Positions 60,448 to 64,000 of a DNA stretch of 64,000 nt are shown here, piece after piece; the stretch's first letter is position 1; each line of letters opens with the position of its first letter. The DNA is taken from NCBI GenBank assembly GCA_045106955.1, contig JBGCFO010000003.1, positions 14,430 to 78,429 of the forward strand, written 5' to 3'. This DNA comes from Rickettsiaceae bacterium. Lineage in GTDB: Bacteria; Pseudomonadota; Alphaproteobacteria; Rickettsiales; Rickettsiaceae. Made by a program: the position numbers and the translations under genes. Under the pieces are notes generated by a model that saw only the letters and a program-made list of their open reading frames with translations, was not told where the DNA came from and ran no database searches.

Positions 60448-60827
60448 GTTTTTAATGCTCGAAAAGTTTTCGCTGGATTTTCTGGGTTCATAAATACGCC
60501 TCTAAACCCCAGTATTCATGGGCTTTAGCGCATTTAAGTCACGCAACACATGCGTACCTAGAGAATCCAAAAATCACCAAAAACACCCCAAATTCTCCCT
60601 TTTTGTTCTCTGTTTCTCCGTTACATGCGAACGTCGGTCGTGAAGGTACGCATCTATCAACCCCTTGATTTTACTGGATTTTTGCGATTTCGGCATTTTG
60701 AGGTTCGTTTTTGGCGGATGGTGTGCGGGGTACTCAGAGTAAGAGAAACCTCTTGACTTCAGTACCTAACATTAGTAAACTTGCATATAATATGAGTGGC
60801 AGAATCAATTTTTAATGTAGGTAACTT

Positions 60828-61250
60828 ATGTGGATTAGAGAGCATAACAAATTTTATCCCGACGTATCCCCTGAGGAGATTTGGAAGATATGGATAGATA
60901 TTAACAACTGGCCCAGTTGGCATGGAGATTTGGATTATTGCAAGCTTGATGGCGACTTCAAGGTGGGAAATCATTTTATGCTGAAGCCTAAAGGCGCGCC
61001 AGCAGTTAAGATTATGCTGACTGAAATTAATGAGATGCAGAATTTTACCGACTGCACAAAGTTCTTCGGGGCTAAAATGTACGATACCCACAGCATGGAA
61101 GTGAAAGATGGTGGTGTTCTGCTTTCCAATAAATTAGTGGTTACAGGGCCCTTAAAATGGCTGTGGATCAAGCTTGTGGCAAAGCATGTTGCAGACACAG
61201 TTCCAGATGAGATGGACTCTTTGGTTAATCTGGCTAGGAATAAAGGCTGA
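60828..61250 (+). CDS. SRPBCC-superfamily (polyketide-cyclase/START-like) small-ligand-binding protein
   Basis: 140 aa. The N-terminal EEIWKIWIDINNWPSWHGDLDYCKLDG block and the size are typical of SRPBCC/polyketide_cyc2 proteins. It is the first gene of the higher-GC operon. Confidence 0.6.
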   Translation: MWIREHNKFYPDVSPEEIWKIWIDINNWPSWHGDLDYCKLDGDFKVGNHFMLKPKGAPAVKIMLTEINEMQNFTDCTKFFGAKMYDTHSMEVKDGGVLLSNKLVVTGPLKWLWIKLVAKHVADTVPDEMDSLVNLARNKG

Positions 61251-61255
61251 AAGAT

Positions 61256-61717
61256 ATGACAAATCCACCATTTGGTTTTGATGCACCTGAAGATAGCCCT
61301 GGTTTTTTGCTATGGCAAACAACTATTTCTTGGCAACGTATGATCAAAAAAGCATTAGAGCCACATGATATCTCCCATGCCCAATTTGTTATTATGGCTA
61401 TATTGCTTTGGTGGCATGGTCAGAAGAGAGAAGTAACTCAAATTGATATTGTCACAATGTCTAAACTAGATAAGATGACTGTTTCAAAATCATTAAAGAA
61501 ATTGGTTGGGATGGATTTAGTAGCAAGACATGAAAACCAAGAGGACACAAGAGCTAAATCCGTGGAATTAACAAAATTGGGGGTGGCTTTAGCCGGTAAG
61601 CTAGTACCTATTGTAGAAGGCGTAGATGAGGATTTTTTTGCCAAGCTTCCGAAAAAACAGGAAAAAGATTTGATAGTAATTTTACGAAAATTAACGGTGG
61701 CAGAAGATGTTAACTAA
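61256..61717 (+). CDS. MarR-family transcriptional regulator
   Basis: 153 aa with a winged-helix core (SHAQFVIMAILLW...TQIDIVTMSKLDKMTVSKSLKKLVGMDLVARHENQEDTRAKSVELTKLG). It starts 5 nt after the SRPBCC gene. Confidence 0.85.
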   Translation: MTNPPFGFDAPEDSPGFLLWQTTISWQRMIKKALEPHDISHAQFVIMAILLWWHGQKREVTQIDIVTMSKLDKMTVSKSLKKLVGMDLVARHENQEDTRAKSVELTKLGVALAGKLVPIVEGVDEDFFAKLPKKQEKDLIVILRKLTVAEDVN

Positions 61718-62726
61718 GCCTAACCTTAAAGATGAAAAAATTATCGCATGCTTGCACGATAACTATGATTTAGATATCGCTGAAATTTCTTTTCTACCAC
61801 TTGGTGCTGATTTTAATACTGCCGTGTACCGAGTTACGACAACAGATAAAACAGACTATTTTCTAAAGCTACGATCTGGAGATTTTTGTGAGCCCAGCGT
61901 ATTAGTTCCACATCACTTAAAACAAATTGGTCTGCAAAATATTATCCCTCCTATTGCAACTAAAACAGACGAATGTTGGACAAATTTAGATGCCTTTAAT
62001 GTGGCCTTGTATCCTTATATTGATGGGCGTAATGCTGTGGATAGTCAAATATCAGAACAACAATGGCAGCAATTTGGGGAGACAGTAAAAAAATTACATA
62101 CTGCTGATATTCCCGAGTCTATTATTAGCAATGTACCAAAAGAAACTTTCTCATTAAAGTGTTGCCAAACGGTAAGATTATTCCTTGAGCGTATAGAAAA
62201 TGAAGTCTTTGATGAAGCTGTAGCCACAAAGTTGGCTGCATTATTAAAGTCTAAAAATGATATCATTTTGGACTTGATAAAACGAACAGAAGAACTTGGC
62301 TCCATACTGCAAAATCAATCCCTTCAACATGTATTATGTCACGCTGATATGCACGGCTGGAATTTGTTGATCGATCAAGATGATCATTTGTATCTCATTG
62401 ACTGGGATACTCTGGTCTTAGCACCAAAGGAGCGTGATTTAATGTTTATTGGTGCAGGCATTTGGGATAGTTGCTACACACCAACTGAAGAAGAATCATT
62501 ATTTTATAAAGGCTATGGGCAAGCCAATATAAACCAAGATGCACTTTGTTACTATCGTTTTAGTCGCATATTACAAGATATTGCTGAATATTGTGAATAC
62601 ATCTTCTTGTCTGATGAAGGCGGTGATGATCGGATGCAGGCTCTTGAACATCTAAAACCTAATTTTTTGCCAAACGGCACAATAGAAAGAGCATATCATG
62701 CTGACAAAATGAGGAATGTTTCATGA
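61707..62726 (+). CDS. aminoglycoside/small-molecule phosphotransferase (APH family, APH(9)-like)
   Basis: 339 aa with catalytic loop LCHADMHGWNLLI and Mg-binding YLIDWD followed by LAPKERDLMFIG. From memory, this block and the overall length resemble Legionella APH(9)-Ia spectinomycin kinase. It overlaps marR by 11 nt. Confidence 0.75.
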   Translation: MLTKPNLKDEKIIACLHDNYDLDIAEISFLPLGADFNTAVYRVTTTDKTDYFLKLRSGDFCEPSVLVPHHLKQIGLQNIIPPIATKTDECWTNLDAFNVALYPYIDGRNAVDSQISEQQWQQFGETVKKLHTADIPESIISNVPKETFSLKCCQTVRLFLERIENEVFDEAVATKLAALLKSKNDIILDLIKRTEELGSILQNQSLQHVLCHADMHGWNLLIDQDDHLYLIDWDTLVLAPKERDLMFIGAGIWDSCYTPTEEESLFYKGYGQANINQDALCYYRFSRILQDIAEYCEYIFLSDEGGDDRMQALEHLKPNFLPNGTIERAYHADKMRNVS

Positions 62727-63778
62727 AGTTATATTTTATAGGCGGCGCCAGCGGTAGCGGCAAGACAGCGATTATGCCAGAACTGCAAAAAATATTAGGC
62801 AGCGAAATAAAGGTCTACGATTTTGATGATATTGGAGTACCTGAAGGTGCTGATAAAAAATGGCGCCAAGAATCTACAGAAAAGTGGTTGCAACAATTAC
62901 TTTCAGATGGCAAAGATGCCTGTTTGCTTGGCCAAATTGTTTTAGGCGAAATCATAGCATGTCCTTCTGCTAAAAAATTAGATTACATTAATTTTTGCTT
63001 GTTAGATGTAAGTGACTTTGAGCGAATCCAACGCTTGAAAAAACGCAATACCTACGGCGCTGATCAAAATATGTTGAACTGGTCTGCTTGGCTTCGTATG
63101 CACACCCGTGATCCGCAATGGACACAGCAAGTAATCAAAGATGCTTCTTGGGATGGTTTAGATTTTTCCTCTTGGGATCGGAGTCTAACCTGGCCAACCA
63201 ATGTCAGCACTAAAATTATCGATACAACTTCTCTAGATATTAAAGAAGTTGCTGAGCAAGTAGCTGCTTGGATTAATAACAACAAAATTGATACGGCTCG
63301 TCTAACAATTAGAGAAATTACAGCAAATGATTTAAATGCGCTATATGGTCTTCTTAGTAATGAAGATGTAATGCGCTACTCTGTGCATGGGCCATATTCC
63401 AAAAAGCAGACAGAAGATTGGATTAGCTTTATTACAGAGCATTATAAAAAGTATCCTCTTGGTATGTGGGCAGTTATAGAAAAAGATAATGATGTGTTAA
63501 TTGGCATATGTGGGTTAATGCCGTTAAGCGATGATGATTCAAAATATGAAATTGGATATAGAATATTACCTGATTTCCAAGGCAAAGGTTATGCGACTGA
63601 GGCCGCTATTGCTGTAAGAGATTACGCTATAAGCGTTGGGGTTAATCAGTTTATTGCTTACATTGAAAAAGAAAACAAACCTTCAGTAAAAATTTCCGAG
63701 AAAATTGGTATGAATTTTCTAAAGAATGGAACCTATAAAAACATACCGGTTCTCATATATGAGTACAAGGTGGAATAA
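62723..63778 (+). CDS. fusion protein: N-terminal P-loop NTPase/kinase-like domain + C-terminal GNAT N-acetyltransferase (RimJ/RimL-like)
   Basis: 351 aa. Walker A is at the extreme N-terminus (FIGGASGSGKTAI). From about residue 193 there is a GNAT domain (LTIREITANDLNALYGLL...IGYRILPDFQGKGYATEA...). An ATGA overlap joins it to the APH gene. Confidence 0.75.
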   Translation: MKLYFIGGASGSGKTAIMPELQKILGSEIKVYDFDDIGVPEGADKKWRQESTEKWLQQLLSDGKDACLLGQIVLGEIIACPSAKKLDYINFCLLDVSDFERIQRLKKRNTYGADQNMLNWSAWLRMHTRDPQWTQQVIKDASWDGLDFSSWDRSLTWPTNVSTKIIDTTSLDIKEVAEQVAAWINNNKIDTARLTIREITANDLNALYGLLSNEDVMRYSVHGPYSKKQTEDWISFITEHYKKYPLGMWAVIEKDNDVLIGICGLMPLSDDDSKYEIGYRILPDFQGKGYATEAAIAVRDYAISVGVNQFIAYIEKENKPSVKISEKIGMNFLKNGTYKNIPVLIYEYKVE

Positions 63779-64000
63779 ATGGCAGTGAGAATTATAAAAG
63801 ATAAAAAATTTTATTTGCTGTGGCTAGCTTCAGTTTTAGGAGCTATTGCGGTTTTACCATATGCAACTGCACAAGCTAGTATCGAATTATCAACAGCTGT
63901 GCTGTTTGGAACTTTGATTCAAGCCACACTAATATATGCGGTTATTACATTTTTTGGCATCAGATTTGCCGAAAAAGCAAATTTCCAAATCACTTCATCT
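63779..64000 (+). CDS. membrane protein, N-terminal 74 codons (possibly CPBP/CAAX-type intramembrane protease; runs off window end)
   Basis: The ATG directly abuts the preceding TAA. It reads MAVRIIKDKKFYLLWLASVLGAIAVLPYATAQ...LIQATLIYAVITFFGIRFAEK with two TM helices. The catalytic motifs would lie beyond 64000, so the family is a guess. Confidence 0.35.
   Translation, partial: MAVRIIKDKKFYLLWLASVLGAIAVLPYATAQASIELSTAVLFGTLIQATLIYAVITFFGIRFAEKANFQITSS

Follow-up and report, generated by a model that had tools for sequence, protein, structure and literature searches.

The last 3.5 kb of a 64,000-nucleotide stretch of DNA from a Rickettsiaceae bacterium (GenBank assembly GCA_045106955.1, contig JBGCFO010000003.1, positions 14,430 to 78,429 of the forward strand; the whole stretch is called the window below) start directly behind the 3′ end of a tRNA-Ser(GCU) gene. 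This block (positions 60448-64000) is probably the portion nearest the tRNA of an integrative island that a deep-branching Rickettsiaceae genome acquired horizontally. An acquired island at this tRNA end had been proposed from the letters of the window alone. The original prediction is supported: the same DNA is found at tRNA-Ser 3′ ends of unrelated genomes, its first four genes have their nearest relatives outside the Rickettsiales, and its composition is foreign to the host. The block belongs to a known class of elements, the tRNA-linked genomic islands. It is distinctive in its fairly recent spread across intracellular lineages, in the use of three tRNA-Ser isoacceptors and in a conserved leader that occupies the place where an integrase gene is expected.

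Composition, host and distribution of the block

The end of the tRNA-Ser(GCU) gene at 60447, as originally called, agrees with ARAGORN and Rfam. Its acceptor stem (GGAGAGG/CCTCTCC) is unbroken and the block begins with the next nucleotide, 60448. The G+C content is 38.1% in 60448-64000 versus 31.0% in 1-60355 (z = 5.25), the highest value among host windows of 3.55 kb being 33.8%. The 380-nt spacer 3′ of the tRNA has a G+C content of 40.8%; the shift in composition begins at the tRNA. Among 47 host open reading frames (ORFs), G+C at third codon positions (GC3) is 0.217 ± 0.033 with a maximum of 0.302, versus 0.496, 0.292, 0.282, 0.315 and 0.283 in the five block genes, taken in order (Mann-Whitney p = 2e-4). 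The likelihood of their synonymous codons under host usage gives z values from -1.3 to -6.1, and the tetranucleotide distance between block and host corresponds to z = 5.3. Thus, the rise in G+C behind the tRNA that had been noticed in spot counts is real: the block differs from the 60 kb of host DNA in G+C, GC3, codon usage and tetranucleotides alike. A second G+C peak (0.42 at 54000-54450) was considered as another foreign block and rejected. It coincides with a Gly/Ala-rich lipoprotein gene (53945-54511, minus strand, GC3 0.275), whose amino-acid content accounts for the peak.

The AlaS protein encoded in the window is 100% identical to the alanine--tRNA ligase of a metagenome-assembled genome (MAG) labelled 'Rickettsiaceae bacterium'. 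Its next relatives, including those from Rickettsia, Candidatus Tisiphia and Trichorickettsia, are all at most 62% identical, and a scan of a genome collection with the window AlaS returned no close relative. Judged by this protein, the host is an isolated, deep-branching Rickettsiaceae lineage, so that a host within the Rickettsiales, as originally presumed, is correct. In the two relatives examined (a Rickettsia genome and a Rickettsia-like metagenomic contig, AlaS about 61% identical), alaS has other neighbours and no tRNA-Ser beside it.

Loci and contigs for comparison with the window, numbered with the prefix L, were gathered from contigs that carry homologues of the aminoglycoside phosphotransferase (APH) gene of the block and from a metagenome scan. 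APH homologues at 82-93% amino-acid identity sit on metagenomic contigs. From 60440 to approximately 63170-63290, the window matches L006/L007, L008/L009, L010/L011, L012, L013, L043 and L052 at 85-92% nucleotide identity by BLAST; in a trimmed multiple alignment of the cassette copies, identity to the window is 88-94%. The shared DNA of about 2.8 kb (60440 to about 63280) comprises the last 8 nt of the tRNA, a leader of about 300 nt and genes for an SRPBCC protein, a MarR-type regulator, an APH(9)-like kinase and a P-loop kinase domain. The flanks of the cassette-bearing loci are unrelated to the window and to one another. Carriers include Chlamydiota (in two contexts), Holosporales and unassigned genomes. 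For instance, L006 stems from a Chlamydiota MAG; its genes run in the order nrdR-dksA-lspA, which we take to be chlamydial. L008 encodes a protein that clusters at 90% identity with a Chlamydiales MAG protein, and L013 has protein clusters in common with an Alphaproteobacteria MAG and a Holosporales MAG. The cassette keeps a G+C content of 37.4-38.8% in every host, and the host flanks range from 31 to 46%.

At the protein level, the products of the first four genes are 85-93% identical to those on Chlamydiota and Holosporales contigs and about 62-65% identical to those in Legionella, Caedibacter and Holospora. Such lineages cannot share about 90% DNA identity in their core genes, so the cassette must have moved horizontally and fairly recently. 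The expectation that the nearest relatives would lie outside the Rickettsiales holds for the first four genes and not entirely for the distal part. The closest full-length relative of the P-loop::GNAT fusion (83% amino-acid identity) resides in a MAG of 34% G+C, in a different context with no tRNA nearby, and this MAG appears to be Rickettsiales-like from its gene content. As far as sequence comparison can tell, these matches show that a module of about 2.8 kb is in circulation between intracellular bacteria that are not related to each other (Rickettsiaceae, Holosporales, Chlamydiota and unassigned genomes). Among the substitutions found in the window copy alone, 20 are GC>AT and 12 AT>GC (Fisher p = 0.06), a lean towards AT that would, weakly, suit a host rich in AT. 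The P-loop gene of the Chlamydiota copy appears to be split into ORFs of 58 and 113 amino acids (L006:11030-11635, L007:2112-2657). It still aligns over residues 5-186 with 79% identity (tblastn) and is probably a decaying pseudogene.

The serine tRNA end and the adjoining leader

Homology to L008, L010, L011 and L052 begins at 60440, and in L006 and L012 the alignment extends leftward into their own tRNA-Ser genes. Wherever a locus reaches far enough to the left, the shared DNA opens with the 8-nt end of a serine tRNA, CTCCGCCA (GTCCGCCA in L012), and in most of these loci GTTT and the leader follow directly. The junction ...CCGCCA/GTTT is identical in the window, L006, L012, L015, L018 and L024. 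Three isoacceptors serve as neighbours. In the window and L015, the cassette or leader adjoins the 3′ end of tRNA-Ser(GCU); in L014, this tRNA and the leader are 17 nt apart, and the spacer closes with a second copy of the repeat (CCCCGCCA). The cassette or leader follows tRNA-Ser(GGA) in L006, L013 and L018 and tRNA-Ser(UGA) in L012, L021 and L024. Behind tRNA-Ser(GGA), the identical loci L027 and L042 carry the APH gene without a leader, and in L028 about 1.7 kb separate the APH gene from this tRNA upstream of it. Just 5′ of the shared 8-mer, the acceptor-stem bases of each tRNA pair with its own 5′ strand, which places the junction within roughly the last 6-8 nt of the tRNA. Over the range of these alignments, the module is shown to land at the extreme 3′ end of serine tRNA genes irrespective of their anticodon.

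Copies of the repeat also occur on their own. Orphan C[CT]CCGCCA sequences with no adjacent tRNA precede a leader-like sequence in L010/L011, L029 (twice) and L052, and in L014 such a copy precedes the leader at an internal junction. L017 contains an orphan repeat upstream of the APH gene, followed by different sequence. In L010, a tRNA-Ser(GGA) gene is located 5.5 kb upstream of the orphan repeat, and other kinase and acetyltransferase genes lie between the two. Orphan copies mark internal junctions in all of these loci, and the module thus stands in tandem arrays at times, with copies of the tRNA end between the units. Tandem integration at one attachment site yields such a layout, which is also familiar from tRNA-linked islands and tycheposons.

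Two side observations concern these junctions. In L029 (1940-11700), an APH(9)-like gene is followed by dapB, asd, lysC, a class-IV aminotransferase gene, dapA, a dapD-like gene, lysA and a desuccinylase-like gene. The whole stretch, with its full diaminopimelate/lysine operon, is flanked by two orphan CTCCGCCA repeats with a hairpin after each, which suggests that biosynthetic operons also travel as cassettes at tRNA-Ser ends. Moreover, palindromic units of the form GTCC(C/T)TAAAGTTA...TAACTTTAAGGAC are repeated just upstream of the orphan repeat in L010 (5330-5560) and L052 (4926-5000), and in L043 (1500-1700) they come after an APH gene that is cut short. These units may serve as binding sites for a protein or form a small repeat element. 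A complete two-armed mini-element in L043 was considered and rejected, as the downstream similarity consists of these palindromic units and not of a tRNA-end repeat.

The leader always adjoins the tRNA end, and the genes behind it vary. Behind it come SRPBCC and MarR genes (window, L006, L010, L012), an alpha/beta-hydrolase gene (L052), the APH gene itself (L013) or an unrelated 5.1-kb block ahead of the SRPBCC gene (L008). Insertions and deletions between leader copies are not multiples of three, and the leader is therefore called non-coding. Against L015, L018 and L024, it is 72-75% identical, exceeding the 44-46% identity at third codon positions of the APH genes there and thus indicating selection on the leader. 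It contains a 10-bp inverted repeat, ATGCGTACCT ... AGGTACGCAT, which is invariant in 8 of 10 aligned copies. An Rfam scan at a permissive threshold matched the tRNA end itself and nothing in the leader, and the leader had no match in viral contigs or phage genomes. A structured RNA was rejected as unsupported, since RNAalifold gave weak energies on both strands with a positive covariation term and no covariation support. We infer that the leader is the element-side (attP-like) arm of a recombination site. It may instead have an oriT-like or RNA role. The 5.1-kb block of L008, a Chlamydiales-type contig, encodes a 383-aa single-chain PheRS-like protein (L008:652-1803; tRNA-synt_2d and FDX-ACB), which is the architecture of mitochondrial PheRS.

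Mobilisation and competing explanations

In the mechanism that we favour, a site-specific recombinase acting on the ...C[CT]CCGCCA end common to tRNA-Ser genes would insert the module. The tRNA end would be the core and the leader the element side of the recombination site, and an excised circle would join the right end, CCTCCGCCA and the leader. The recombinase itself would be encoded further along the island, past 64000, or act in trans.

Several observations weigh against an integrative island of this kind. No recombinase is encoded in 60448-64000 or beside any of the close (about 90% identical) copies, so the earlier remark that no integrase is visible in the window stands. Nor does the 3.5-kb block show a repeat of the tRNA end at a distal junction. 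The right end of the smallest copy, the 2.7-kb island of L013 with APH and P-loop::methyltransferase genes between tRNA-Ser and the core genes rsmE, ubiA and glnA, has no recognisable repeat either. In distant relatives, a serine recombinase is found 5-8 kb from the tRNA, in a module that starts at sequence unlike the tRNA end. Two further points, the assembly of the source contig from a metagenome and the lack of an empty site in the relatives examined, are taken up with the alternatives that they favour. As to the cargo, the assignment of the APH protein as a spectinomycin kinase falls short of the family cut-off, and any substrate read from its sequence is a guess. A scan for tyrosine-recombinase motifs in 478 ORF segments of all loci found none, which is a weak negative owing to the strict regular expression used.

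The distant relatives just mentioned are L015, L017, L018, L024 and L049, at 60-65% amino-acid identity. L015, L018 and L024 each lie behind a different tRNA-Ser gene, and their upstream flanks are not related, which indicates that the whole structure is mobile. Their cargo varies (APH, P-loop::GNAT, further GNATs, GFA and an AraC/GyrI-like regulator). Downstream of it follows a conserved module with 433-aa large serine recombinases that are 97-98% identical to each other. A large serine recombinase (Resolvase, Recombinase and Zn-ribbon) is also present in L017 and L049. The module occupies L018:15750-21011, L015:13066-18327 and L024:14267-17095 and occurs in L049 as well, with 90-97% nucleotide identity between loci. 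It comprises a 136-aa ORF, the serine recombinase, DUF2924, an S24/LexA-like repressor, a Toprim/AAA_25 primase-helicase, a LAGLIDADG-like ORF and AAA_24. On account of its DUF2924, S24 repressor, primase-helicase and AAA_24 content, it is a phage-like element, and it runs for at least 5 kb to the locus ends. The serine recombinase was not adopted as the tRNA-Ser integrase, as the module opens at CCAAACATTTCTTC, which is unrelated to the tRNA end.

Related cargo is found on other replicons. In L051 (Legionella adelaidensis NZ_LR134433.1, 334442-355492), a related APH gene (67% nucleotide identity) forms the cargo of an island together with genes for another phosphotransferase, an AAA ATPase, a GNAT and a metallophosphoesterase. 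This island sits at ssrA, the gene for tmRNA, and encodes a tyrosine integrase, FRG, AlpA and RepB-primase. As the APH cluster of L. adelaidensis rides on an ssrA island with a tyrosine integrase, the cargo travels on more than one type of vehicle. L050, a plasmid of Candidatus Megaera polyxenophila (CP113871.1, 11319-11958), contains a stand-alone P-loop gene with 74% nucleotide identity; ahead of it stand about 60 nt that share homology with the APH gene at its 3′ end. Here a remnant of the cassette sits on a Rickettsiaceae plasmid, a possible vector.

The block and its relatives resemble known tRNA-linked islands and integrative mobilisable elements in their insertion at a tRNA 3′ end that leaves the tRNA intact, their foreign composition and their cargo of accessory enzymes. 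Further likenesses are a short repeat of the tRNA end at internal or distal junctions of related loci and the use of several tRNA genes that share the target. A crossover at the extreme 3′ (CCA) end of the tRNA is reportedly the third sublocation class of Williams (2002, NAR 30:866). Unlike such islands, the window and its close copies have no integrase beside the tRNA. A non-coding leader of about 300 nt fills the usual position of the integrase, the repeat measures merely 8-9 nt, and the hosts are obligate intracellular bacteria of different phyla.

Tycheposons of Prochlorococcus and other marine bacteria are likewise cargo modules beside tRNA genes, including tRNA-Ser(UGA), with partial tRNA copies inside and tandem-repeat junctions (Hackl et al., bioRxiv 10.1101/2020.12.28.424599). 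A minority of them have large serine recombinases in place of tyrosine recombinases, and each integrase group is tied to one tRNA (10.1101/2020.12.28.424599). The loci described here share the tRNA-adjacent cargo, the tRNA-end copies and the tandem-repeat junctions. In contrast to tycheposons, however, one cassette family uses three tRNA-Ser isoacceptors, the strict scan revealed no tyrosine recombinase motif, and the cargo consists of enzymes of an antibiotic-modifying type rather than nutrient-uptake genes.

Reduced-genome obligate intracellular bacteria are often viewed as nearly closed to gene flow. Acetyltransferase genes and genes of the aminoglycoside-phosphotransferase family have been listed among candidate transfers linking amoeba-resisting bacteria, namely Parachlamydia, Legionella-like bacteria and Rickettsiales or Wolbachia (Gimenez et al. 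2011, PMC3220658). That inference was made gene by gene from protein similarity, whereas we describe a defined multi-gene segment of about 90% identity with a fixed insertion site. Its presence in Rickettsiaceae, Holosporales and Chlamydiota is concrete evidence of fairly recent exchange inside shared eukaryotic hosts. The leader and the tRNA-Ser end provide a traceable marker for following this exchange. With its cargo of an antibiotic-modifying type, the cassette is relevant to the pool of resistance genes in the environment and to the small molecules that these symbionts encounter. A conserved leader with no linked recombinase raises the testable question of how the cassettes move.

One answer, which is doubtful, is that the 8-9-nt tRNA end and the leader of about 300 nt mark out a new class of cassettes, which would lack an integrase and be mobilised in trans. 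In the manner of integron cassettes or cis-mobilisable elements, they could be captured and stacked by any tRNA-Ser, and the leader would represent a previously undescribed cis-acting recombination or transfer signal. If true, protist-associated intracellular bacteria of different phyla would draw on an exchangeable pool of accessory genes.

It is unlikely that the block was acquired without any dedicated tRNA-Ser integrase. It would then have arrived in a plasmid- or phage-like manner, followed by homologous or illegitimate recombination at the tRNA-end and leader homology, and the proximity to tRNA-Ser would reflect repeated recombination among pre-existing islands. The missing integrase beside all close copies would fit this explanation, as would related genes on the Candidatus Megaera plasmid and the L. 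adelaidensis replicon. The strong mosaicism, with the identity break inside the P-loop gene and the 5.1-kb block in L008, points in the same direction. However, acquiring the block for the first time at the same nucleotide behind three isoacceptors, and in three distant lineages, would be difficult unless a site-specific step took part, and orphan repeats of 8-9 nt are typical of recombinase cores.

Quite improbable is an assembly chimera, in which a Rickettsiaceae contig ending in tRNA-Ser(GCU) was joined to the cassette contig of another organism via shared tRNA k-mers. The metagenomic origin of the contig would allow it, the composition breaks exactly at the conserved tRNA end, and no independent contig spanning alaS, the tRNA and the cassette was found. 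As the cassette lies behind tRNA-Ser in most other genomes examined, a second organism could also offer a matching junction. Yet the longest run in common with other GCU-type tRNAs is about 16-20 nt, which is below the usual final assembly k-mers, and the tRNA-Ser genes of other carriers differ substantially from that of the window. The AT lean of the private substitutions (20 versus 12, p = 0.06) is what would be expected in a genome of 31% G+C, and the nearest full-length relative of the distal genes resides in the AT-rich, apparently Rickettsiales-like MAG.

That the block is ancestral to the Rickettsiaceae lineage and merely atypical in composition, for example through expression level or amino-acid content, would agree with GC3 values of 0.28-0.29 for MarR, APH and the GNAT domain, close to the host single-gene maximum of 0.30, and with the lack of an empty site in the relatives examined, but is scarcely credible, since about 88-94% nucleotide identity to Chlamydiota and Holosporales copies is irreconcilable with vertical descent in a host whose AlaS is at most 62% identical to its relatives, and since the non-coding spacer is likewise G+C-rich and common to the copies.

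Genes of the acquired block and their putative function

The features of the island as far as it lies in the window are compiled in Table 1. All five genes are on the same strand with operon-tight junctions, and each of the four junctions described beforehand matches: a 5-nt gap between SRPBCC and MarR (61250/61256), an 11-nt overlap of MarR and APH (61707-61717), an ATGA overlap of APH and P-loop::GNAT (62723-62726) and a TAA abutting the ATG of the membrane protein gene (63778/63779). The domain calls made from the translations likewise proved correct (SRPBCC, MarR, APH, AAA_18::Acetyltransf_3 for the P-loop::GNAT fusion, and a membrane protein). The promoter-like region in front of the operon is kept in L006, L010 and L012.

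Table 1. Features at the tRNA-Ser(GCU) end and in the block behind it (window coordinates)
Feature	Position	Strand	Basis or remark
tRNA-Ser(GCU), host gene; 3′ end is the insertion point	60356..60447	+	ARAGORN; Rfam tRNA 60.5 bits
CTCCGCCA, last 8 nt of the tRNA; left limit of shared DNA, candidate recombination core	60440..60447	+	
Conserved non-coding leader adjoining the tRNA end	60448..60750	+	84-92% identical in close copies
Promoter-like region and operon 5′ UTR	60751..60827	+	Predicted TTGACT-17-TAAACT at 60753-60781; perfect TATAAT at 60786-60791
SRPBCC (Polyketide_cyc2-like) small-ligand-binding protein, 140 aa	60828..61250	+	PF10604; PDB 3IJT E = 2e-11
MarR-family regulator, 153 aa	61256..61717	+	Pfam MarR and Sar/Rot above cut-off
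APH(9)-like aminoglycoside/aminocyclitol phosphotransferase, 339 aa	61707..62726	+	Pfam APH 66.7 bits
P-loop::GNAT fusion, 351 aa	62723..63778	+	P-loop 62723 to ~63277; GNAT (Acetyltransf_3) ~63278-63778 (Pfam)
5′ part of a probable CPBP/Rce1-like membrane protease gene, leaves the window	63779..64000	+	Extension from L046

The SRPBCC protein matches PF10604 with E = 2.5e-5 and 25 bits, under the cut-off of 27.4, and is 90-97% identical to its counterparts in L006, L008, L010 and L012. The MarR protein, 93-95% identical across the other copies, scores above the cut-offs of PF01047 (33 bits versus 24.6) and PF22381 (40 bits versus 27). The APH matches the spectinomycin phosphotransferase APH(9)-Ia of L. 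pneumophila (PDB 3I0O) over its full length (E = 5e-60), and its translation holds the catalytic motifs CHADMHGWN (HxDxxxxN) and IDWD (DxD), both of which are also present in APH(9)-Ia. Many of its homologues carry the source label spectinomycin phosphotransferase. Unlike APH(9)-Ia itself, it reaches 245 bits against an NCBIfam cut-off of 680 for this family and 28 against 675 for APH(9)-Ib. As the scores lie far under the family cut-offs, it probably represents a distinct APH(9)-like subfamily.

Modelled with AlphaFold (pLDDT 74.5), the P-loop domain matches gluconate, shikimate and adenylate kinases, and the GNAT domain resembles SpeG-like spermidine acetyltransferases. A role in anti-phage defence was considered and rejected, as PADLOC gave no support for a defence system; its sole match was a weak helix-turn-helix hit to the MarR protein. 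In the simplest reading, the block is a ligand-responsive, MarR-linked operon that would modify small molecules, possibly antibiotics, with aminocyclitol or aminoglycoside-type antibiotics as the likeliest targets. These compounds would be inactivated or modified, under MarR control, by two kinases, the APH(9)-like enzyme and a P-loop kinase to which an acetyltransferase is fused, with the SRPBCC protein as ligand binder and the CPBP-type protease gene behind. The SRPBCC gene stands out by a GC3 of 0.50 versus 0.28-0.35 in the remaining cassette genes, so that the cassette looks mosaic in origin.

Mosaicism is also evident in the fusion gene. Its P-loop part scores 26.6 bits with AAA_18, under the cut-off of 29.4, and nucleotide identity with the other copies stops inside it, at about 63170-63290, near codons 150-190. 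The kinase domain of about 185 amino acids (62723-63277; homologues P0243-P0360) has at least five kinds of C-terminal partner across genomes, namely two GNAT types, a SAM methyltransferase, NUDIX and a SnoaL-like domain, and it also stands alone. Since nucleotide identity between copies breaks at the domain boundary, this pattern points to the boundary as a putative hot spot of recombination or domain swapping.

The gene at the right edge is complemented by the 2.1-kb Logan contig L046, which is 99.9% identical to 62210-64000 and adds 319 nt past the window. In this extension, the still partial protein shows EEVLLR and FAVGH motifs and an Rce1-like match (E = 6e-4), with a Pfam score of 20.6, just under the cut-off of 22.4. 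As the CPBP-type gene is foreign in composition as well (GC3 0.283, codon z -3.7), the island continues beyond 64000.

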